64,000 bases of DNA from Spirulina sp. (GTDB lineage: Bacteria; Cyanobacteriota; Cyanobacteriia; Phormidesmidales; Phormidesmidaceae): contig JBIPSI010000004.1 in assembly GCA_044070495.1 (NCBI GenBank), positions 135,577 to 199,576 on the forward strand, given 5' to 3'. This document shows positions 42,252-63,105 of the stretch, one piece after another. The stretch's first letter is position 1, and each line of letters begins with the position of its first letter. The notes below the pieces were generated by a model. The model had not been told where the DNA came from and did not search any database. It saw nothing but the letters and a program-made list of their open reading frames with translations. A program made the translations under genes and the position numbers.

Positions 42252-42818
42252 ATGGATATCATGGGCATGAAGTCAAAGTTTTTGGTCTATTCCACGGCAG
42301 TTTTTTGTCTGGCCGTAGGGAATATTGTTTTGCCTGTAAAAGCGATGCCTGCGACCCACCCCGTCAACGTTGCCCAGGCTAGCACCTCGCTGACAGAAGC
42401 CAATGTTCAAGCCGTTATTGAGCAGTTGGAGGCAGCACGGGATAGTCGCGATGTTGAGGGAACCCTAGCGCTGATTGCTCCCTTTGCGGTGACAGTCGTA
42501 ACCGTTGAGTCTGGGAATGGGCTTTCAACCGTGACCACTCGCCTAGAAGGGATAGATGCCCATCGGCAAATGTTAGAGCAAACCTTTGGTCAGGTTCAGA
42601 GCCGAGAAATGCTGAGGGGCCACATCGACATCGACATCGTTAATGACGGCTTTGGTGTCGCTAAAATCTATCAGATGGAAAACATTCAAACCTCAGAGGG
42701 GGAAGCCTTGATAGCCGCTAGTCAGACGGTGCTTCGCTTTGGGCAAGTCAATGGTCGCGTACTAGTCACCTCCGCCACCGTCGAGGGTTGGATTGCCGCA
42801 CGGCCTACGGAAAATTGA
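42252..42818 (+). CDS. Secreted NTF2/SnoaL-like protein
   Basis: Signal peptide; helix (LEAARDSRDVEGTLALIAP) followed by beta strands. Confidence 0.55.
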   Translation: MDIMGMKSKFLVYSTAVFCLAVGNIVLPVKAMPATHPVNVAQASTSLTEANVQAVIEQLEAARDSRDVEGTLALIAPFAVTVVTVESGNGLSTVTTRLEGIDAHRQMLEQTFGQVQSREMLRGHIDIDIVNDGFGVAKIYQMENIQTSEGEALIAASQTVLRFGQVNGRVLVTSATVEGWIAARPTEN

Positions 42819-42882
42819 TACCCAGTCGGGTATTAAAATTACGGAAAATGTGAACGTCGTAGCATGACATGAAAGGGATAAA

Positions 42883-43242
42883 ATGATGAAGCGATCAATA
42901 GCTGTTGGCTTATCTATCTTGACTGCAATGGCGTCTTTAGTACCTACCGCTAACGTAGCCCAAGCCAGCTTTGGAAATTTTATGCTGGGGGTCGGGGCTG
43001 CTGCGGGAACCAGTGCCGTGATTAATGCAAATCGCCGCGCCAATGAAGCAGAACAGCGAGCCGCAGAGGCTGAGAGTCAGCAACCTGTATCCTCCGAGGA
43101 AGAATTCTTTCGCGGGCTTCAGGACGCCCTCAATGGGCTTCCCTACGACAACTTTCGGGCAACCACGTATTATGACGAAGGCTTTCAGGAAGGTGTGCAA
43201 CGTTTGCAGCTTGGCACGGGTTCGCGAACAGAAGATGAGTGA
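42883..43242 (+). CDS. Secreted hypothetical protein with a glycine-zipper-like segment and YDEGFQEG motif
   Basis: Signal peptide AQA; FMLGVGAAAG; FFRGLQD...YDEGFQEG. Confidence 0.55.
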   Translation: MMKRSIAVGLSILTAMASLVPTANVAQASFGNFMLGVGAAAGTSAVINANRRANEAEQRAAEAESQQPVSSEEEFFRGLQDALNGLPYDNFRATTYYDEGFQEGVQRLQLGTGSRTEDE

Positions 43243-43289
43243 CTATTGGATAACCCTTCACACCATCTTGGGTTGAGGTAGGGATAGCT

Positions 43290-43541
43290 TCAGATTGGGT
43301 TTTTCCCAGGGGAGTGCTCCTTCTTGGCAAAGCGGTCGATGTTGGGGGTGCGGAAGCCCATCAGACCCTTGGTATAGGCGCTGATGTCACTCTGGCCAAT
43401 GTCGTCGCCCCAAATCACCACCATGTTGCGCTTGGTGGGAGCGGTAGGAACGGCGGTTCCAGGGGCGTTACTGGCCGAGGGATAAACGACGGCCATGGCC
43501 TGACCTGTCCCCAACTCCAGCCACTTCGTCGGCCCAGCCAT
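43290..43541 (-). pseudogene. Truncated duplicate of the arylsulfatase N-terminus
   Basis: GQAMAVVYPSAS...VVIWGDDIGQSDISAYTKGLMGFRTPNIDR is near-identical to 41450-41630, ends before the catalytic Cys and lacks the signal peptide. Confidence 0.85.
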
Positions 43542-43651
43542 AACGCATCGAAGGCTTGTCCTGCATGGGTTACGCTTTACTCCAGCATCCCAATCTCACG
43601 GAAATTTACCTGATTTCGGCCTCTCCATATTTTTAGGTTTGCTTTTCAGAT

Positions 43652-44230
43652 TTAGAGGTCTGAAGTCAGGGTTAGTCCACGGTAGACCTGCTCGATGGCA
43701 AAACCTAGGCCAATGCTTTTTAACTCGATGGTGTCGCCTGGTTGATAGTTAATGATCACCCAGTCACCAGCCTCATTTTTGTGGTACAAATCCATCTCAA
43801 TCTTGGTGGAACTTACCAATAAGTAATCCTGTAGAACTGGATTTTGGCGATACAGCCTGAACTTGCTGCCCCTATCGTAAGCTTCGGTGCTTTCTGATAG
43901 CACGTCAACGATCAAGCAGGGATAGGTAATGTATTGAGGCGTTTGCCTGTCACGATCATCGCAGGTGACGCTGGCATCGGGATAGGTATAGTTTTGGCTG
44001 GCCACACTCTTAACTTTGATGTCAGAGTTTCCAGTGATGCAAGGGCTTCCCTCTAGATGGGTCTCAAAGAGGCTGGTTAAACGAATGGCAATGCGTCCAT
44101 GGTTCACACTGCCGCCGCCCATGGCATAGACTTCACCGTCGATATACTCATACTTTTCTGGCTGGGTTTCTTCCCAAACCAGATATTGATCGGGGGTGAG
44201 GCGAGGTACGTTATCGTTGGCGGCAATCAT
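43652..44230 (-). CDS. Uma2 family endonuclease-like protein
   Basis: YEYIDG, YPD, PCLIVDVLSESTEAYDRGSKF (the usual E is D here), QDYLLV. Confidence 0.88.
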   Translation of the reverse strand: MIAANDNVPRLTPDQYLVWEETQPEKYEYIDGEVYAMGGGSVNHGRIAIRLTSLFETHLEGSPCITGNSDIKVKSVASQNYTYPDASVTCDDRDRQTPQYITYPCLIVDVLSESTEAYDRGSKFRLYRQNPVLQDYLLVSSTKIEMDLYHKNEAGDWVIINYQPGDTIELKSIGLGFAIEQVYRGLTLTSDL

Positions 44231-44326
44231 ACGATTAAGCTATATGAGAAACGGCAACTTTTACCTAATAAAATGATAGCTATTGTTTGATTTTAGCAGC
44301 GCATAGCTCAACCGATCACCTCATCA

Positions 44327-44533
44327 GCCTAACGTCAAAGTTGTGCGGCGGCAGACAAACTCAAACTCTCACCGATGGTAGTCCTATTTCGTACAGGCTA
44401 GAGAATAATCAGGCGACCCTAAAGACCTTACGGCAGTAGATTGCTGTTTCTGGCTGATTTTTCTCTGACCCGTAGATTAATGCACTACCTCACCGATAAC
44501 CTCTGTACCGTCCGCACCAACGCAGTGTTATGC
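44327..44533 (-). other. Integron attC site (86 bp once the inserted MITE and one TSD copy are removed)
   Basis: Minus strand: R'' GCATAAC - 5 bp - L'' GTTGGTGC ... L' GCACAAC - 6 bp - R' GTTAGGC, with two extrahelical bases. Confidence 0.85.
44377..44489. mobile_element. 113-bp MITE with GGTAGT...ACTACC termini and 8-bp target duplication
   Basis: TCACCGAT at 44369-44376 and 44490-44497; imperfect ~21-bp TIRs. Confidence 0.85.
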
Positions 44534-44599
44534 CGCGTATGAACGTAATATGTCAACGATTACAGAAAAGGGCTGGATGCAAAAAATTGAGTATTACAA

Positions 44600-46363
44600 T
44601 CACAAACTTTCTTCTTCTGGAATTTCAATTCTATAGATGAACTTTACCCTCTTCCTATTCAACGGATTTAGTTTAGCTACTCTAATTAGTGCAGCTATTG
44701 TTATATCGGCAATAGTTTTATAATCTTGAGACTCCTTTTCATTGTTTGAACTTAGCCCTTTAAATGTCAATAGTCCCTTTCTGATTTTTGAAACGATTCT
44801 ATCTGGCTTTGACATCATCCATTCATAAATATCATCTTCGGTAAGAGAACTTAAAAAGTTAATATCTTCTCGACCCCACCCTTGATTTTTAACGATTCCG
44901 TCAAGCACATCATTTATATTTAAAATTTTGCTATTGTCTCGTAATTCTTGTATTTTAAACTCCAAAATAACATTTTTTATCTTTCTAATAGACGAGAAAT
45001 CCTCCGGATCAGTGTTAGCCAGTTCATTGGCGTGAAGAGATACATATTTATCAATATAACTATTCACATCATCACCATATTCTTCGAGCAAGTCTATCGA
45101 TTGAGAGAAGTCCCAGAGACTAATTTTACTCAGATCGGATTCCAAAATATCTCGAATGGTTGACTTTAACTGATCTAAGTTGTCATCAAATGAGTCAGCA
45201 TATATATCCCATGCATCGCGTAGTTTTTGCTGAGTAATATCTATCTGTTTTTTATAATTTGCTTTATCTACCTCTTTTTTAAACTCTTCTTCATTTAAAT
45301 ATCCGTCTGTAAGTAATGAGACAAGATAATCATCGTAGCATGAAGGAAATAGAGCTAAATAACTAGCTATCTGGCTCCACGATTTCTCTTCCTCAGTCCT
45401 GGCTTGTTCATTCTCACGTTCTGACAATAGTGAAAGCCATGTAGTCTCTTTTATACTACTACTAATGAATGATAGAGAGAGATTATTTTCCGAGTTGAAG
45501 AACCCCCAGCAAAATACTGCAAGATGCACTAAAATCTCTTCCTGAAGGCTGGTTTCACAAGTTTTAGCGAAGTTCCAAATTTTACTTATACTCCATTTCA
45601 TTTTCTTAAAGATCCTGATATTTGAAATATCAAGAGCCTGAAACACATTTAGGAGGCTTTCAAAGTATTCATCTTCAGAATTAAAGACCTTTAGGATGTT
45701 TTCTTTTATCGTAGGTTTGTATTCAACCTCTAGGTCAATAACTTTTTCGCGATATTTATTGAACTCACTTAAATCTTGCTCACTCAATGTTTTCTCATTA
45801 AGAATGAGAATGACTTTGCACTGCTTTCTCTTGCTTAGTTCATCGACAAACCCCATGATTTGTCTTATCTTTAAGCTCTCTTCCTTTCGCTCAATATCAT
45901 CTAGGCAAATAAGATAATTACTAATCAACTGATATTCCGCTAAGTCGATTATTGAAGAAAACCCCTTGACTTGAGGAACATACTTGGCAAATTGATATAG
46001 CGGAGCTAGAAATCGCAAGAAGTCCTGACTACCTGAACGCGCACCAAATAATGCTTCCGAAATTCGATTCTCATTTAAAGAAAAGCTTTTAAGTTCTTCT
46101 TTGAATTGCTCTCTTGATTTCAATAACTTTCCTGTTCGGAAAATCTTTGATTTCAATTCTGATAAATCATGTAAGCCAAATAAGGATATATAGGAGTATG
46201 CTGTTTGCTTTAGCTCTTTTTTGTCTATCCTATTTTGAACGTAGTTCTCCCAAAAATAGGTTTTTCCAATCCCCCATGAACCCCTTATAACAAGAACGGC
46301 TAAGTCCTTTTCACTAAAAAATGAATCTAGTGTGTTTCTAATGGCTAAGGTGCTGCTATCCAT
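44600..46363 (-). CDS. KAP-family-like P-loop NTPase (integron cassette cargo)
   Basis: GSWGIGKT Walker A, YISLFG, LDDIER Walker B, YREKVID, NIR; markedly AT-rich. Confidence 0.8.
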   Translation of the reverse strand: MDSSTLAIRNTLDSFFSEKDLAVLVIRGSWGIGKTYFWENYVQNRIDKKELKQTAYSYISLFGLHDLSELKSKIFRTGKLLKSREQFKEELKSFSLNENRISEALFGARSGSQDFLRFLAPLYQFAKYVPQVKGFSSIIDLAEYQLISNYLICLDDIERKEESLKIRQIMGFVDELSKRKQCKVILILNEKTLSEQDLSEFNKYREKVIDLEVEYKPTIKENILKVFNSEDEYFESLLNVFQALDISNIRIFKKMKWSISKIWNFAKTCETSLQEEILVHLAVFCWGFFNSENNLSLSFISSSIKETTWLSLLSERENEQARTEEEKSWSQIASYLALFPSCYDDYLVSLLTDGYLNEEEFKKEVDKANYKKQIDITQQKLRDAWDIYADSFDDNLDQLKSTIRDILESDLSKISLWDFSQSIDLLEEYGDDVNSYIDKYVSLHANELANTDPEDFSSIRKIKNVILEFKIQELRDNSKILNINDVLDGIVKNQGWGREDINFLSSLTEDDIYEWMMSKPDRIVSKIRKGLLTFKGLSSNNEKESQDYKTIADITIAALIRVAKLNPLNRKRVKFIYRIEIPEEESL

Positions 46364-46459
46364 ACTCTTTCCCTACTAGCGATAGAAAATTAATGGTTAC
46401 TGAGCCTCATTCGGCAAACCGCTAACCCTTTGCCTGCCGCCCTACCAAGAAGCCAAGCG

Positions 46460-46545
46460 GCATAACGGTGAAGTGCAGCGGCGGCAGACAATCTCGAACT
46501 TAGTACCAGTAGCTTTCGACCGTCCGCTGCCACGCAGTGTTAGCT
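46460..46545 (-). other. Integron attC site (86 bp)
   Basis: Minus strand: R'' AGCTAAC - ACTGC - L'' GTGGCAGC ... L' GCTGCAC - TTCACC - R' GTTATGC. Confidence 0.88.
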
Positions 46546-46576
46546 GGCTTTCTCCACAAACTATCTCGGCTTATCC

Positions 46577-47068
46577 TTACTCAGGCTCTTGGGCAAGGGT
46601 TAAGATACGCTGATATAGCTGAGGGCTGACGCGAAAACCAGCCTGGTTGATTAAGGCATCCATAACAGGTTGAACTTGAGGGATGAGGCTTCTTTGTTTA
46701 GCCACAAGCAGAATACCCAGAATACCAACGATAGATAGTCCAAGCCGGATAGCTTCTTGTCGTCCCAATCGTTCATCAATGAGCAAATCATCGGCTTGTA
46801 GCTCAAATGCCAATGCAATAGCATTCGCTTCTCCGGCATCAAGTCCCCGTTCTTGTTGTAATTGGTCAGCAAGTTTGAAGTTGATGAGTGATTGGGTTTG
46901 AATCCAACCTAATTTGAGAATAGCTGAAATAGTGGAATTGCTGGCGGCTGCGAGTTCAGTAGCAACAACATCAGGAATAATCACGTTTTGGTAAATAGCT
47001 TCTAGCAACCAGAGATGATCAACAATGGCAAGATTGGAAAGGGCGGAGGTATCGCTAACGACGATCAT
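46577..47068 (-). CDS. DUF3368 family PIN-like protein (putative toxin)
   Basis: MIVVSDTS.L, IPDVV..E, LDAGEANAIALA, LLIDERLGR. Confidence 0.88.
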   Translation of the reverse strand: MIVVSDTSALSNLAIVDHLWLLEAIYQNVIIPDVVATELAAASNSTISAILKLGWIQTQSLINFKLADQLQQERGLDAGEANAIALAFELQADDLLIDERLGRQEAIRLGLSIVGILGILLVAKQRSLIPQVQPVMDALINQAGFRVSPQLYQRILTLAQEPE

Positions 47069-47334
47069 AACCAGCCCCGCTCACGCAGATGCTGAACATC
47101 CTGCTCAAAATCTTCTACGTCGTAATGGACACAGATGCCACGATCTGCTAGCAGCTTTTGAAATTCCATGATTTCCATCCCAGCAATTTTACTGGCGCGG
47201 CTGAGAGAAATCTGCTCCTGCTGAAACAGGGCGATGGCAATTTCCCGGAGCCAATCGCTTTGGTTAAAGATTCCAGTTGCGCCAAGGCTATCGGGTAGGT
47301 TCAGGGTAATTTGCATTGAGTTATCCTCACGCAC
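47065..47334 (-). CDS. UPF0175 family protein (putative antitoxin)
   Basis: EIAIALFQQEQISLSRASKIAGM...F..LL..RGI..HYD; 4-bp overlap with DUF3368. Confidence 0.88.
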   Translation of the reverse strand: MREDNSMQITLNLPDSLGATGIFNQSDWLREIAIALFQQEQISLSRASKIAGMEIMEFQKLLADRGICVHYDVEDFEQDVQHLRERGWL

Positions 47335-47377
47335 TTATCTTTAATTTTAACGATTCGCTAGCATGACTTGTTGGGCT

Positions 47378-47941
47378 TCATGCCGACTGACCACGAGTGA
47401 GATTCGGCATTAGCGCGAAGAACTTCTCGCATCTTTCTTCGACCGCTTGAAGTGAAGGCGCTCGAAACACTTCGGTATGCAAGCGCTCGCAGCCTTCGGT
47501 CACGCATTCAATAGCAGTTTTCTCCCAGAGCCTGCGACATGGCCATGCTTTGATCACCTGAGTATAAGGAGCTGAACAGCGATGTTGGCGAAGGCGTTCA
47601 TTTAGGTTGCTTGCGAAGCCAACCTTGAAACGAGTTGGATCATGCTCCGGCTCTAGGATCAGCAGATAGAAAACACCAAGGTCGTATAGAGCAGCCTCAG
47701 TAGTAAATTCGTCCTCTTCGCCTTCTTGCCCGTCTTGGGTGCTTCTGGTTGCAGCGAGGGATTCCAATACCCGGCGACCATCTTCTTCGGTTATGTAGGA
47801 AATAGTCTGACCGCGATGCTGGTTGCCACCGCGCGACTTAGAAGGCTCGATTTCGAGACGCTTAAGAACTTTGAAAACGGTCTGCTTGTGTAACCCGTTC
47901 TTCTCTGCAAAGTCTTTAACCGAAATGAGATGCTCCATCAT
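47378..47941 (-). CDS. Hypothetical protein: N-terminal HTH-like plus GIY-YIG/T5orf172-like domain
   Basis: SVKDFAEKNGLHKQTVFKVLKR; GVFYLL...RFKVGFASNLNERLRQH...WE...EVF. Confidence 0.6.
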   Translation of the reverse strand: MMEHLISVKDFAEKNGLHKQTVFKVLKRLEIEPSKSRGGNQHRGQTISYITEEDGRRVLESLAATRSTQDGQEGEEDEFTTEAALYDLGVFYLLILEPEHDPTRFKVGFASNLNERLRQHRCSAPYTQVIKAWPCRRLWEKTAIECVTEGCERLHTEVFRAPSLQAVEERCEKFFALMPNLTRGQSA

Positions 47942-47990
47942 TTACTCCATAACCATTCAACAACGGAGTGCAAGGACTGGATGCGGAGCC

Positions 47991-48009
47991 AGCTAACTCT
48001 TTATTAGAG
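47991..48009 (-). other. attI-like recombination core
   Basis: Minus strand CTCTAAT-AAAGA-GTTAGCT (7-5-7). The following TTAGCTGGC is complementary to the R'' end (GCCAGCTAAC) of the 46460-46545 attC. Confidence 0.7.
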
Positions 48010-48148
48010 GGAAACTTTCCACCTAATACCCCTATACGGGATCTTAGGTAGAAATCTGTCTGCCTAAATACCCCTGGGGGGATCTTAGGTGGGAAAAAAT
48101 CAGCCTAAATGCCGGATATGGGATCTTAGGTGGAAAGTTTCAGTATAA
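48004..48148. repeat. Phased ~41-bp tandem palindromic repeats next to the attI-like core
   Basis: GGGATCTTAGGT at 48038, 48079 and 48120; CCTAA-N17-TTAGG three times. Confidence 0.85.
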
Positions 48149-48287
48149 ATACTCGATCCCCTAGATGTCCTGCAACTTAAGATTTCTCTTAACATTGCTG
48201 GAATCCTCCCCACACAACAATCCCGGGCTCTAATCAAAACTAGCGTTACCGTCCCCCCGGCGTAGGGTTGAACGGAATCGGTTTTGT

Positions 48288-50210
48288 TTAACGAGCCTTA
48301 ATACCCCGTACTTCCCTGGCGCGATCATCTTTCACTAGCATGGAAAGACCGTCTGAATTTTTGGTGGGCAAGTTCACCAGATAGTCCATAATCGCTTGCC
48401 ACTCTTTAATCTCTCGGCTGGCGGCATTGATGGCGGCGAGGTCGGCACTGAGGTGGGTGGTGGCAGGGAGAACGTAGGGGCTGGTAGAGTCCCTGGGGTC
48501 AACAATGGCCTCGTCTTTGCGGGTGAGGGGGCTACCATCGGCCTGTTTGGGCTGGAGGGGTAACGCGCCTTTAGTGAGTTGGGGAATGTACACCAGAATG
48601 GAGCCGATGTACAAACTGGTGGCAAAGCTGTAGAGGGTTGGGGCAGCGAGGTCGAGGGGGGTGTAGCCGTCGTCCAGGTTACCCAGTTCTAGGGCAGTAA
48701 CTTGGTCAAAGCGGGGGCGACTGGGGTCGTAGTAGAACCGCAGGCCGGAGGTTCTGGGATAGTATTCGCCCGGATGGTTGGGGTCGTCGATGAGCAGAAA
48801 TTCCAGGATGTTCTTGATCTCCGCCGCCGTGAAATAACCCTTCACCATGGCACTGCCAGCGGTAGGATCCACAATGCCATTGCCGAGGGGAGCCAGGGTA
48901 AAGATGTCGTACACCGTTTGCACCCCGGTGTTGCCCTTGGTAAGTCCGGCCCGGATGGCCCCGTTGGCGGTGAAGGCGATTTGGCTGGTGGTGGCAAGGC
49001 GTAGGGCGTCCGTCACCACGTTGGCTAGGGGCGTGCCGGATTCAATATCCCCGTAGTCCATGGGCCAGTCTTCGGTGATCATCACCAGGGGTTGGCTGGT
49101 GGCATAGCCCCGTGGGGCAAAGGTAATCTCTCCCGACCGCTGCAAGAAGCGTTCCACCTCAGCCTGAATGGCGGCATCGCCCTGAATTTGGTCATCCACC
49201 GGAATCAGCCGATAGGACTCCACCGTCACCCGACCATCCTCCAGGCTCAGCACCAGTTCGCCCAGGTGTTCGCCATATTTTCCGGTCTGCACCACGGGGC
49301 GATGATCCACCAAAAGCGGCTGCCGCAGTTCGCTGTGGGTATGGCCACCAATCACCACATCCAGCTCAGGAATGGCCTCCAGCAGGTTCAGGTCTTCCCC
49401 CTGGAAAGACCCATCTGGGCGCTTCACCACGCCCCCGTGGCTGAGGGCAATCACCACATCCACCTTGTCCGCTTGCTTTAGCCGTTGCGCTGCCGCCCTG
49501 GCCGTTTCAATTGGGTCGCCAAAGGCCACCGCGCCCACATCCGCCGCGTACTTAAAGGCGTCGTAGCCAATGATGCCCACCAGCCCAAACCGCAGCCCAC
49601 CCCGCTCAATGATCCGGTAGGGCTGAAGCACCCCCCGCTGGGCCAAGTCTTGCAGGTCAGCCAAGCGTTCCGAGTCGGCACTGACATCGCTATTTGTCAC
49701 CACAATGGCCGGAATCTCGCCCGCATCCGCCGCCCGCTTGATCGCCTGCCCCAGGCCATCCGGCCCTAGGTCAAACTCGTGGTTGCCCAGGGTGGTGGCG
49801 TCGTAGCCCAGGGTGGCCATCAGTTGCAGTTCCGCTCCCAATTCTCGACAGGCGGCGGCTACAGCGGTACCCATGCTAAAGTCCCCGGCATCCAGCACCA
49901 AAACGGGGCCAAGCTGCCCTAGGTCGGCCTTGCGCTGGGCAATCAACGCCCCTAGGCGGGCATAGCCACCCTTGGTCTGGTCATCCCCCAACGTGGTGGG
50001 CGTGTAGTCTCGCAGCGGCCCCACCCCCACCACGTTAGAGTGCATGTCGTTGGTGTGGAGGATGGAAAAAATTTGCTTGCCTGGGGTAGCCGCAAGGGCG
50101 TCTAGAGCGTGGGAAGACAACATGACAGCAGGGGCTAGGGCCAGAGAGGCCTTCAAAGACGTTTCCAAAAAGGTGCGGCGATTGAGATCGGGACGTTGCA
50201 TCGGGATCAC
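48288..50210 (-). CDS. Tat-exported 5'-nucleotidase / bifunctional metallophosphoesterase
   Basis: NRRTFL Tat motif; LHTNDMHS, LDAGDF, LGNHEFD, LSHGG, IGGHTH; NGAIR C-terminal domain. Confidence 0.9.
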   Translation of the reverse strand: MIPMQRPDLNRRTFLETSLKASLALAPAVMLSSHALDALAATPGKQIFSILHTNDMHSNVVGVGPLRDYTPTTLGDDQTKGGYARLGALIAQRKADLGQLGPVLVLDAGDFSMGTAVAAACRELGAELQLMATLGYDATTLGNHEFDLGPDGLGQAIKRAADAGEIPAIVVTNSDVSADSERLADLQDLAQRGVLQPYRIIERGGLRFGLVGIIGYDAFKYAADVGAVAFGDPIETARAAAQRLKQADKVDVVIALSHGGVVKRPDGSFQGEDLNLLEAIPELDVVIGGHTHSELRQPLLVDHRPVVQTGKYGEHLGELVLSLEDGRVTVESYRLIPVDDQIQGDAAIQAEVERFLQRSGEITFAPRGYATSQPLVMITEDWPMDYGDIESGTPLANVVTDALRLATTSQIAFTANGAIRAGLTKGNTGVQTVYDIFTLAPLGNGIVDPTAGSAMVKGYFTAAEIKNILEFLLIDDPNHPGEYYPRTSGLRFYYDPSRPRFDQVTALELGNLDDGYTPLDLAAPTLYSFATSLYIGSILVYIPQLTKGALPLQPKQADGSPLTRKDEAIVDPRDSTSPYVLPATTHLSADLAAINAASREIKEWQAIMDYLVNLPTKNSDGLSMLVKDDRAREVRGIKAR

Positions 50211-50276
50211 GCCTCAGTAGTGCCAATCTGTGGAAATTAAATCAGGCAAATTGTAGGCCGAAGCCCGCTGGCTCCA

Positions 50277-50292
50277 CTATTCAAAAAACGCA
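50277..50292 (-). promoter_or_regulatory. Conserved 16-bp upstream motif, copy 2
   Basis: CTATTCAAAAAACGCA about 67 bp upstream of the nucleotidase start. Confidence 0.65.
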
Positions 50293-53470: not shown

Positions 53471-53772
53471 TAAGGGTTAAGCCACGGTAAACGTGCTCGA
53501 TGGCGAAACTTAGGCCAATGCTGTTTAGCTCGATGGGGTCGCCCAGTTGATAGTTAGTTAATGATGACCCGGTCACCAGACTGATTTTTGTGGCATGTAG
53601 CGGATTTAACACGGGTTAAGTACATTGCGATGATCCCCCTGCCCCCCTTAAAAAGGAGGATATAGCGTGAAACTTAGACAACTAGGCACTGGGGGGATCT
53701 AGAACTCAGCAACGGTGTATCTCACGCTATCGAGAACCGCTATAAATCCATTTCAGTGCTAGTGCTGGCCCA
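53471..53772 (-). pseudogene. Degenerate 3' fragment of a Uma2 paralog of 43652-44230, interrupted by a MITE
   Basis: GGGTTAAGCCACGGTAAACGTGCTCGATGGCGAAACTTAGGCCAATGC... aligns to 43668-43810, with a 4-bp GTTA duplication frameshift. Confidence 0.8.
53598..53742. mobile_element. ~145-bp MITE-like insertion with TAGCGG...CCGCTA ends
   Basis: Uma2 homology stops at 53597 and resumes at 53743; inverted termini; carries CCCCC palindrome remnants. Confidence 0.7.
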
Positions 53773-60488: not shown

Positions 60489-62117
60489 GTGAATTATCGC
60501 TATAGACAAACTCCTAGGCAGACCATCTGGCCCCTGTCTGTCTTGGGCAGTGGGGCGCTGATCCTTCCCCTGCTGGGATGGAGTGCTCCAGGCTATACCG
60601 CTCCCTGCCAAGGTCCTATTGCCCTCCAAGCAACCGATTGCGCCGATTGGATCGCAGGTTTTCCTAGGGATAATTTAGGGATAACCAAGGAAACAACGGT
60701 CAAACCGTCAACATCGCTGCTTCCCTTGCAATATGAGGCATCTGCGGCTCAACCCAGCCCGGAGTTATCGTCCAATTGTGAGAACGCCACGCCGCCATGG
60801 CTCACCCCATCCAATGATGCGGAGTCAGCGATGTCGAGTCAGGCGGCTGATCGGTATCCGGTGTCAACCGGCCTAGCAGCGGCCTCTCTCACCGGGGATG
60901 CTCCTATTCCAACAGCGCCAGCCTTGGCCCAAACCAGCAGTGGTTCACCGCCACTTAGTGTTTGGGAACGCTCAACGTTAACAGGGGATTGGGGCGGGCT
61001 GCGATCAGACTTTGCCGATAGTGGCGTCACCTTCGACCTCTACTTCACGCAGTTTTTGCAGGGGGCCGTGATCAGCTCCGGCTCCCGTGAATTCAACTAC
61101 GGGGGGCGCTTCGATGCCCTGATCAATTTTGATACGGAAAAGCTGGGCCTCTGGGAGGGGGGAAGTTTCAATACCCACCTGGAACTACGGTACGGCAGTA
61201 TTCCTCCCTTGCCGACGGCCCAGGGAGCCTTTTGGCCTGTCAATACAGGAGCCGCGCTTCCCTTGGGAGACTCAGGAAATTTAGTGGCCTCCTCGCTCTA
61301 CCTATCCCAGCGGTTGGGCGATGTTTCGCTGCTCATTGGCAAAATTAACGTACTCGACTTGTTAGCCCGTGACCCGTTCTTTGGTGGTTGGGGTACACAG
61401 CGATTTATGAACCTTTCCTTCGTTGCTCCTCCCAGTGGTGTCCTGCCACCCACCATCTTTGGAGCGATCACCAACATCCGCCTCGACCCCATTACCCTCA
61501 CCTTCATGGTCTATGACCCCAACGACCAGACCAACAATTACTGGCCCAATAATTTGTTTGAAGACGGCGTAACCTTCTCGGCTGGGGCCACCTACGCCAC
61601 GACGATTAGCCATCGACCAACCACCGTTAGCCTCGCGGGCACCTACAGCACTCAAGCAGGGCCAGACCTAAACGATATTCTGTTGCCGCCGGACATCGAA
61701 GGTGGCACTCAACAAGGCTCCTACGCGATTGCGTTCCAGTTCAGCCATTTACTCCAACAACTGCCCGATAACCCCCGTGAAGGCTGGGGCATCTACTTCA
61801 GAGGGTTGCTGGCCGATGGCAACCCCAACCCGATTCAAGGGTCAGTGGTGACAGGCATCGGTGGTAGAGGGCTATTCGCTAACAGACCTCAAGATCGTTT
61901 CGGGCTGGGTGTTTTTTACTGGAACTTCAGTGATGAGCTTCAAAGCACGGTCAATCCCATCATTGACTTTGGGAATGGCTCTGGTTTGGAAGCCTATTAT
62001 AGCTATGCGATTACGCCATGGTTTCACTTGACGGGGGATGTGCAATACATCAATCCCGCAAACCAGAGTTTCAGCGACGCTCTGTTTCTAGGATTGCGGG
62101 CTGGTCTGCGATTTTAG
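60489..62117 (+). CDS. OprB-family carbohydrate-selective porin
   Basis: LTGDWGGLRS, RPQDRFGLG, EAYY, DVQYINP, C-terminal GLRAGLRF. Confidence 0.85.
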   Translation: MNYRYRQTPRQTIWPLSVLGSGALILPLLGWSAPGYTAPCQGPIALQATDCADWIAGFPRDNLGITKETTVKPSTSLLPLQYEASAAQPSPELSSNCENATPPWLTPSNDAESAMSSQAADRYPVSTGLAAASLTGDAPIPTAPALAQTSSGSPPLSVWERSTLTGDWGGLRSDFADSGVTFDLYFTQFLQGAVISSGSREFNYGGRFDALINFDTEKLGLWEGGSFNTHLELRYGSIPPLPTAQGAFWPVNTGAALPLGDSGNLVASSLYLSQRLGDVSLLIGKINVLDLLARDPFFGGWGTQRFMNLSFVAPPSGVLPPTIFGAITNIRLDPITLTFMVYDPNDQTNNYWPNNLFEDGVTFSAGATYATTISHRPTTVSLAGTYSTQAGPDLNDILLPPDIEGGTQQGSYAIAFQFSHLLQQLPDNPREGWGIYFRGLLADGNPNPIQGSVVTGIGGRGLFANRPQDRFGLGVFYWNFSDELQSTVNPIIDFGNGSGLEAYYSYAITPWFHLTGDVQYINPANQSFSDALFLGLRAGLRF

Positions 62118-62386
62118 AGGGTTTATATTCTAGGGCGCGTCATCCTTTAGTTGCTCATAGTTGCTCAAAGTCGAGGTTATCTGCCGCCGCACAAATTTCA
62201 CGATAGATTTTCAGTGTGTTTTCTTTAAGTAGAGGCTTCTTATGGCAATTTCTGTTCCGGGTGATCCCATTGATAGTATTTGGCTCAGTTTGCCCCTAGC
62301 AACCTGGCAAGATACCTATGCAACTGTCCATCTATGGACAGGTAGCCGTAGATCGTACCCCAACCGCATAAGGAGCATACCCGAAA

Positions 62387-62962
62387 ATGGTTAAAGGCAG
62401 GTTAGAAGCATTCAGTGATGGGGTAATTGCTATTATTATCACCATTATGGTGCTGGAGTTGAAAAGACCTCACGAGTCAGATCTAGCGGCGCTACTTCCC
62501 CTGATTCCAACATTCCTAAGCTACGTGTTGAGTTTCGTGTATGTTGGTATTTACTGGAATAATCACCATCACCTATTTCAGGCCGTCCGACACGTCAATG
62601 GTGCAACTTTGTGGGCAAACCTACATTTGTTGTTCTGGTTATCATTATTTCCCTTTGCTACAGCATGGATGGGTGAAAATCACTTTGCGGCGATGCCCGT
62701 TGCGCTTTATGGTGTGATTCTATTGTTGGCTGCGATTTCCTACTTTGCTCTAACCCGCACGCTTATTTTGTACCATGGCCAAAATTCCACCCTTGCGAAC
62801 GCTCTTGGTCGGGATCTTAAAGGAAAGTTATCGGTATTGATTTATGCCGTTGCAATTCCCCTTGCTTTTGCAATCCCTTGGCTTGCCTGTGCGTTGTATA
62901 TTCTGGTTGCCGTCATGTGGCTCGTTCCTGATCGCCGCATTGAAAAGACATTGAACTCATAA
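62387..62962 (+). CDS. TMEM175 family (DUF1211) K+ channel
   Basis: RLEAFSDGVIAIIITIMVLE, YWNNHHHLF. Confidence 0.9.
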   Translation: MVKGRLEAFSDGVIAIIITIMVLELKRPHESDLAALLPLIPTFLSYVLSFVYVGIYWNNHHHLFQAVRHVNGATLWANLHLLFWLSLFPFATAWMGENHFAAMPVALYGVILLLAAISYFALTRTLILYHGQNSTLANALGRDLKGKLSVLIYAVAIPLAFAIPWLACALYILVAVMWLVPDRRIEKTLNS

Positions 62963-63105
62963 CGTTTCATGTTCTGATGCGACAAAAAACAGCTAACAAT
63001 CCCGCTGCACCAGAACGAAGTCAATCTATCAGCAAGAAGCAGAGGTTATCTAGGTTCGGTGAGCGGGGGCGTTAGATTGCCTATACAATTGGCCTACTGC
63101 CTAAG

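Follow-up and report, generated by a model that had tools for sequence, protein, structure and literature searches.

An integron-type cassette array with an attached attI-like region and no neighbouring integrase gene in Spirulina sp.

Results

Two cassettes between a Uma2 gene and a 5'-nucleotidase gene

The window analysed here is a 64-kb stretch of Spirulina sp. DNA (G000:C4:135577-199576, the final 64 kb of the 199.6-kb contig C4). Between a Uma2-family gene and a 5'-nucleotidase-like gene it carries four minus-strand open reading frames (ORFs), which are separated by two related palindromic sites. The locus is almost certainly an integron array, made up of two cassettes and two attC sites that span 44327-47997, with the genes on the minus strand. 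A sequence-only reading of this DNA had already described such an array. Its coordinates and sequence strings are all present in the sequence and its cassette boundaries are exact, but it overlooked the attI-like region inside its own coordinates. The features of the array are as follows.

44327-44533, minus strand, 207 bp: attC1, the attC of cassette B, its variable loop split by a miniature inverted-repeat transposable element (MITE)
44333-46465, minus strand, 2133 bp (2012 bp without the MITE and the duplication): cassette B, with G|TT boundaries
44377-44488, no strand assigned, 112 bp: the MITE, with a 9-bp target duplication at 44368-44376 and 44489-44497
44600-46363, minus strand: KAP-family P-loop NTPase gene, 587 aa (Pfam PF07693, 22.9 bits, cut-off 20; PADLOC PDC-S49, E 6e-26)
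46460-46545, minus strand, 86 nt: attC2, the attC of cassette A, with the plus strand as predicted folding (bottom) strand
46466-47996, minus strand, 1531 bp: cassette A, its boundaries being the G|TT crossovers
46577-47068, minus strand: DUF3368 (PIN-like) toxin-like gene, 163 aa (Pfam PF11848, E 2.2e-16; PADLOC PDC-S70, E 1e-62)
47065-47334, minus strand: UPF0175 antitoxin-like gene, 89 aa (Pfam PF03683, E 3.6e-22; PADLOC PDC-S70, E 1.8e-6)
47378-47941, minus strand: T5orf172 ORF, 187 aa (Pfam T5orf172, GIY-YIG-like, 21.8 bits, cut-off 20; weak N-terminal helix-turn-helix)
47997-48191, minus strand, 195 bp: attI-like region, homologous to DNA beside the integron integrase gene (intI), with the crossover at 47997/47996 (top strand G|TT)
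48142-48171, minus strand: promoter-like site, candidate cassette promoter (Pc), AGGACA, 18 nt, TATACT, facing the cassettes

On the top (minus) strand, the first bases of cassette A are GTTAGCTGGC (G|TTAGCTGGC), with GCCAGCTAAC on the R'' side of its attC; for cassette B the start is GTTATGCCGC (G|TTATGCCGC) and the R'' side GCGGCATAAC. The array terminates in GTTAGGC on the same strand. The proposed cassette ends are borne out by these G|TT crossovers and, for cassette A, by the same end points in arrays of other families, described below. Both cassettes are poorer in GC than the window (48.5% in cassette A and 36.5% in cassette B vs 55.8%).

The attC sites share a covarying fold

The two sites are both 86 bp long without the MITE, as the sequence-only reading had it: attC2 as it stands, and attC1 once the 112-bp MITE and one copy of the 9-bp target duplication are removed. 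Their R boxes (GCATAAC...GTTAGCT in attC2, GCCTAAC...GTTATGC in attC1) carry the AAC/GTT triplet expected of attC. The consensus fold of five sites from five contigs has an R box (TAAC/GTTA), a bubble and an L stem, with two bases left unpaired on the 3' arm of the plus strand.

We built a home-made covariance model from five sites of this genome, attC2 among them, and fitted to this same model an alignment of 27 sites from this and other genomes. Across the 27 sites, 94.9% of cells pair vs 73.3% in shuffles, and 13 of the 19 pairs have changed on both sides. For covariation the score amounts to 0.562 vs 0.174 in shuffles, none of 500 reaching the observed value, and falls to 0.058 or less when the partner is slid. 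The TAAC/GTTA pairs (columns 4-7/127-130) are invariant or nearly so, the commonest pair occurring in 23-27 of the 27 sites. Within the L stem, 97.2% of cells pair and 11 of 12 pairs have changed on both sides. Consensus fold and covariation together uphold the canonical geometry with two extrahelical bases that had been proposed, on an alignment fitted to the model. Each 86-nt site has 35 unpaired loop columns, within the ~20-100 nt that an excerpt of Cury et al. 2016 (PMC4889954) gives for the variable terminal structure of attC; with its MITE, attC1 (207 bp overall) lies outside this range.

The strand can be read from the same model. attC2, which is a training member, scores 103.4 bits on the plus strand vs 13.8 bits on the minus strand, and its homologues in other families, which are outside the training set, score 70-92 bits. 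A filter-free scan of the window yielded three matches at E<0.05, namely attC2, the left half of attC1 (17.8 bits) and 62991-63077. Covariance scoring, suggested earlier as a check, is therefore favourable for attC2 on a model trained with it, and for attC1 extends to the left half. At least 15 sites of this genome reach E<0.01, five of them the training sites (150 of 729 candidates scored), and contig C17 holds a run of four model-predicted attC sites ~1 kb apart.

We also collected intI loci of other species, 80 in all and most of them from filamentous cyanobacteria and Chloroflexota. These gave nine model matches, all of them on the intI strand and upstream of intI; the position and strand of these predicted sites relative to intI are as expected for a divergent cassette array. 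The fold energy of attC2 is -18.8 kcal/mol on the plus strand vs -14.6 kcal/mol on the minus strand. Single-site fold energies were weak and inconsistent between attC2 and attC1, and we therefore dropped them as a strand test and used covariation instead. Since the model scores are orientation-specific, the plus strand is taken as the folding (bottom) strand, which places the genes on the top strand, as in ordinary cassettes.

In the predicted fold of the whole attC1 (213 nt), the R and L stems are kept and the MITE forms a separate hairpin. An uninterrupted 86-nt homologue of attC1 is present in the relative G005 (L026:2111-2196); it matches at 73 of 86 positions, scores 80.7 bits and has a single CTCACCGAT, the sequence of the MITE target duplication.

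A third attC was considered at 47344-47412, between the antitoxin gene and the T5orf172 ORF, and rejected: the stretch has no model match and a weak fold (z = -2.05), and other copies of the cassette continue past this point to the same GCCAGCTAAC end.

A region homologous to intI-linked DNA abuts the first cassette

Beyond the crossover of cassette A, the attI-like region consists of CTCTAATAAAGA, three 41-bp repeats (48009-48136) and a conserved 50-bp tail. Each repeat holds inverted CCTAA/TTAGG motifs, and the single strand of the region is strongly structured compared with shuffles (z = -5.9). The repeats, here and at C33:136-263, are imperfect palindromes whose halves, RCCTAAR/YTTAGGY, resemble attC R boxes.

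The attI-like region shares 88-90% identity with C33:122-317 and C60:122-317, both of them immediately upstream of intI. On C33 the attI region stops ~20 bp before an intact intI (338-1309), and the similarity of the window to the intI-linked copies ends ~25 bp short of the expected intI start. Seven copies occur in the genome. In the alignment their homology begins exactly after YTAAC, and four different flanks are found to the left: those of the window, C53 and C33b are each distinct, and C33a, C60, C17 and C43 share a short ORF-less cassette. This shared first cassette (C33:1-124, C60:1-124, C17:122071-122194 and C43:4200-4323) is very short, with a 9-bp-stem hairpin and a weak attC, and may be a fixed part of the platform. 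In two loci of other species, L063 and L050, an attC is likewise found 60-105 bp from attI.

Homologues of the region are recognisable in 12 of the 80 intI loci of other species. All 12 are situated within 225 bp upstream of intI, and in each of them the junction YTAAC|TCTTTATTAGAGGG is conserved after unrelated DNA. Homology and junctions thus give the region what is expected of an attI, a place between intI and the first cassette and joining at G|TT.

The TATACT hexamer of the promoter-like site falls within the conserved tail of the attI copies. Promoter-like sites are not above chance in the region (6 found, 7.7 expected), and the site at 48142-48171 is only a lead as Pc.

The integrase gene is absent here and intact elsewhere in the genome

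A profile search found no TIGR02249 or PF00589 match on contig C4, and no intI remnant was seen in the 64-kb window, where the best tblastn match to IntI has E=4. The earlier claim that the 64 kb lack a tyrosine recombinase is in agreement with this, and the locus is not a complete integron, in which intI adjoins attI and the array.

That reading had also suggested looking for intI elsewhere, and an intact gene is indeed present on C33 (338-1309, 323 aa). Its product scores 466.7 bits on TIGR02249, vs a cut-off of 265 that none of 14 control genomes exceeds. It aligns over its full length with VchIntIA (2A3V; E 5e-93) and has RHRY-type motifs. The alignment, to VchIntIA residues 6-317, is poor in gaps and covers residues ~190-250, the IntI-specific extra segment, which identifies the protein as an IntI.

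This is the sole intact intI of the genome, which has seven attI copies. Among the paralogous platforms, C33 has the intact gene, C60 an internally deleted one, C53 a remnant in which ATG has become ATA, and the window none. N-terminal intI fragments occur on C28 and C23. The same fragment (residues 13-61, 90-92% identical to C33 IntI) stands at C28:3-149 and at C28:73653-73799; its presence at both ends of C28 points to further platform copies at assembly breaks.

Cassette A: a widespread toxin-antitoxin unit with an inserted gene

Cassette A was correctly delimited in the sequence-only reading, which did not notice that this is a toxin-antitoxin cassette of wide distribution, with one additional gene inside. 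Some part of 44534-47996 is matched at E<=1e-20 in 58 of 301 genomes. In other cyanobacterial families the toxin-antitoxin cassette is found at 80-87% identity, with the same two end points and inside arrays. At five of the nine cassette A loci that were fetched, homology begins at 46461-46463, where attC2 starts, and the DNA beyond YTAAC is unrelated. At L117 and L121 the cassette has the same GCCAGCTAAC| at its other end, and the attC of the following cassette comes immediately after it. Because these end points are shared with other families, cassette A is a mobile unit with exactly these ends.

The copy in the window differs from the others by 604 bp (47351-47954), which stand where other copies have a leader of ~66 nt and which include the T5orf172 ORF. 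The cassette in L117 is ~1.0 kb long, and the ORF is absent from the cassettes of both L117 and L121. Possibly it is a selfish gene of nuclease type that invaded a cassette.

Toxin-antitoxin cassettes are reported to stabilise integron arrays, as cited in PMC2426708 (its reference 51), and the pair in cassette A probably stabilises this one. In their family matches, both cassette B and this toxin-antitoxin pair are similar to candidates for anti-phage genes.

Cassette content has changed among relatives

The sequence-only reading had proposed to look in close relatives for an empty site or for different cassettes, and both were found. In G004, which is ~84% identical in the 5'-nucleotidase gene, the homologues of 43523 and 48284 are only 224 bp apart; the site is empty, the Uma2 gene (43652-44230), the array and the attI all being absent. 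The more closely related G005 (~92% identical) has the same flanks without intI and with other cassettes. It shares the intI-less junction, window 48141-50291 corresponding to C221:454-2591. To the left of 48141, a different low-GC ORF and the end of an insertion sequence (IS) stand in place of the attI repeats. At the Uma2 flank (C154:815-1438, equivalent to window 43699-44327) both the attC (26.5 bits) and the cassette are different ones. As the intI-less junction is common to both genomes, the intI-less state predates the split of G000 and G005, and the cassette content has changed since. The orthologous region is rearranged between the two, and the G005 contigs are too short for the full locus to be reconstructed.

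Across the genus, attI-like DNA was detected in 27 of the 41 genomes searched. The closed genome G048 holds 10 substantial attI copies, one beside an intact intI, one beside a truncated intI and eight without intI. For at least nine of these 10 copies, one or more co-oriented attC sites were found within 8 kb on the side of the cassettes, with 150 of 382 candidates scored.

In public sequencing runs, at most 0.14 of the sampled words of 43600-48400 were present in any run. Contigs of runs X1, X2, X3 and X24 cover fragments of the Uma2 gene, halves of attC sites, attI and portions of the KAP gene. Three pieces of X1 show 0-2 differences, and a single 1684-nt contig of X24 over 44501-46178 shows 85. 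Joints in the runs (MITE-less attC forms, and attC beside attI) have short sides and possibly come from other organisms. None of the runs contained the array, and among these joints there was no excision joint assignable to this strain.

A MITE inside attC1

The element in attC1 is short and non-coding, ends in the terminal inverted repeats GGTAGT.../...ACTACC and is flanked by its target duplication, as a MITE would be. It has eight BLAST matches in the genome, three of them 100% identical over 112 nt (C25, C1 and the attC1 copy itself). Its empty site is known from the attC1 homologue of G005. In L018 (G005:C221), an end of this MITE family at 1-196 stands beside a zinc-finger, transposase-like frame, which suggests that the MITE derived from an IS with 9-bp target duplications.

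Neighbouring genes and a second small cassette

Two genes flank the array and the attI-like region.

43652-44230, minus strand: Uma2-family gene at the far array end (Pfam PF05685, E 3e-34; PADLOC PDC-S03)
48288-50210, minus strand: 5'-nucleotidase-like gene, the next gene beyond the attI-like region

The filter-free covariance scan of the window revealed no attC after the Uma2 gene, so that its being a further cassette is not supported. Uma2 genes recur at the far ends of arrays. The window contains a second Uma2 remnant at 53477-53597, and the matching place in G005 (C70) has a full Uma2 gene, a MITE copy and the uninterrupted attC1 homologue; this C70 gene is the orthologue of the remnant and not of the gene at 43652. 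Beside the array, a minus-strand sulfatase gene (~42800-43541) seems to be fragmented into a number of short frames. It reads through only over the N-terminal 83 codons (43290-43541), and the G004 homologue of the stretch is 78% identical. A second small cassette at 62095-63077, in the opposite orientation and ~0.9 kb from the contig end, is bounded by the attC at 62991-63077 (minus strand, 30.2 bits) and a half attC at 62095-62191 (10.3 bits). Its plus-strand ORF (62387-62962, 191 aa) resembles a small membrane protein.

Discussion

The locus is a cluster of attC sites that has no integron integrase (CALIN) formed by intI loss, a class that is already described and common. The retained attI region, together with paralogues at several stages of intI decay, fits a platform whose intI was lost or never carried along. 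On balance, we favour the reading that the window locus is such a platform minus its intI (lost or never copied along) that is still recombined in trans today by the IntI encoded on C33. The sequence-only reading had left a choice between a remnant that lost its intI and a landing pad served in trans. Both hold in part. Loss of intI is supported by the attI homology and the decay of the paralogues, while service in trans by the C33 enzyme is possible, and present-day recombination at the locus is inferred. In the mechanism that we propose, C33 IntI would act in trans on the locus. The plus (bottom) strands of the attC sites would fold into hairpins for the enzyme, attC x attC exchange would excise cassettes as circles, and incoming circles would be inserted at the attI G|TT, between 47997 and 47996.

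Several observations weigh against this proposal. The extrahelical pair of attC sites is usually T and G, whereas the unpaired bases of these sites are T and C. The single-sequence fold of attC2 has z = -1.8, with 10 of 200 shuffles equal or better, and attC1 without the MITE folds at -11.0 and -11.3 kcal/mol on the two strands, showing no strand preference in energy. The 121-bp insertion in attC1, which brings the site to 207 bp, may hinder the excision of cassette B. The putative role of the 195-bp region as an attI site is assigned from its position and its junctions. The orthologous attI of G005 is missing its left 145 bp, lost by events off the G|TT site; since at least some of the change there did not occur at G|TT, IntI need not have made that part of it.

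Two of these points, the insertion in attC1 and the loss in G005, also favour regarding the locus as a decayed platform that is now an inert fossil, the differences between relatives having come from deletion, IS and MITE activity and homologous recombination. A MITE does sit within attC1, most of the G005 attI is gone beside an IS end, and at the Uma2 end the G000 and G005 sequences diverge from 5-6 nt outside the expected crossover. We nevertheless consider an inert fossil rather unlikely. The attI core and its three repeats are intact, at 88-90% identity to the intI-linked copy, as are attC2 and the C33 IntI, and distinct first cassettes stand exactly at the G|TT of distinct attI copies. 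Moreover, the MITE sits inside the variable loop, and the R and L stems persist in the predicted fold. It is much less probable that the array is a fragment split from the main integron by a chromosomal rearrangement rather than a separate platform. Rearrangement is one of the routes to CALIN named in the portion of Cury et al. (PMC4889954) consulted here, the region is rearranged between G000 and G005, and several arrays of the genome end at contig breaks. However, the array has its own attI, which is 10-12% different from the intI-linked copy; the intI-less attI-flank junction is common to G005 at 92% identity and hence old; and in G048 eight orphan attI copies are dispersed over the chromosome.

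The remaining two explanations deny that the locus was ever a platform or that the 195-bp region is an attI, and we give either very little credence. Off-target insertion of cassettes by IntI at a secondary chromosomal site is a known route (Cury et al. 2016, PMC4889954, and Loot et al., bioRxiv 10.1101/2022.09.11.507474, both as excerpted), but it is disfavoured here, where the first cassette abuts, at the conserved crossover, a full-length homologue of the intI-linked attI. We also rejected the idea that the 195-bp element is an independent mobile repeat, MITE-like with a 134-bp core and 16-bp inverted ends, that merely lies beside cassettes. It is multi-copy (7 in G000, 10 in G048, present in 27 of 41 genomes of the genus) and strongly palindromic, and exactly its left portion, as far as the 134-bp core goes, is missing from the G005 locus. 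Nevertheless, copies remain homologous for 13 nt leftward and ~50 nt rightward of the inverted ends, every left neighbour has YTAAC at its end, and no target duplication is seen. The position upstream of intI is likewise kept in 12 of the 12 other-species loci that have the element, and at least nine of 10 copies in G048 have a co-oriented attC on the expected side (150 of 382 candidates scored).

Compared with known systems, the platform read here is like a CALIN in having at least two attC sites (attC1 and attC2, 2 kb apart), no intI nearby and an IntI elsewhere in the genome. Cury et al. 2016 (PMC4889954), as excerpted, defined the CALIN and noted integrons in Cyanobacteria; half of all their CALIN lay in genomes with an IntI, and intI loss was one of the origins that they proposed. 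In the same excerpt, an intI pseudogene lay within 10 kb in 15 of 279 CALIN, and attI sites were searched for in classes 1-3 only. Unlike the CALIN described there, the window locus retains an attached attI homologue. In a full-text literature search (supplements not covered, and thus not proof of absence), neither orphan attI copies nor attI sites from cyanobacteria were found described. The Vibrio cholerae superintegron, a sedentary chromosomal integron, offers a further likeness in that C33 IntI aligns over its full length with VchIntIA (IntI4), the attC sites within the genome are homogeneous and a toxin-antitoxin cassette is present. It differs in being one large array, whereas here there are many small arrays, each with its own attI and mostly without intI.

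attI1 of class 1 integrons has two inverted core boxes around G|TT and repeated motifs on the intI side, with two direct repeats. The window matches this architecture with its core of CTCTAA, 6 nt and G|TTAG and with its repeated motifs on the intI side. The sequence itself shows no homology to attI1, and the accessory part here consists of three tandem 41-bp palindromic units with CCTAA/TTAGG halves. Decayed integrons that carry intI pseudogenes are a further comparison, and a paper on a Xanthomonas integron reportedly belongs with them. In the part of Nemergut et al. 2008 (PMC2426708) consulted, about one third of intI genes are pseudogenes, one fifth of integron-bearing lineages have several intI, and intragenomic duplication followed by decay is proposed. 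Unlike the decayed integrons described there, the window locus has lost intI fully while its attI and cassette boundaries are intact.

A broader reading, which we put forward tentatively, is that the integron of this genus is a dispersed network in which one or two IntI serve many orphan attI sites, each growing a small array, and that the window is a working node of it. As part of the same tentative reading, the attI would be built from three tandem 41-bp palindromes with halves like attC R boxes. Chromosomal integrons have recently come to be viewed as stores of defence genes, and the toxin-antitoxin pair and the KAP NTPase, with their matches to candidate anti-phage families, fit this view.

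Taken together, the locus is a CALIN whose origin can be read, because its attI is kept and its intI is gone. In the genus, attI copies far outnumber intI genes, and nearly every copy has cassettes on the correct side. Should the orphan sites serve in trans, the working capture capacity of a genome is underestimated wherever a survey treats CALIN as debris, and cyanobacteria would be a natural system for asking what an attI needs to function.

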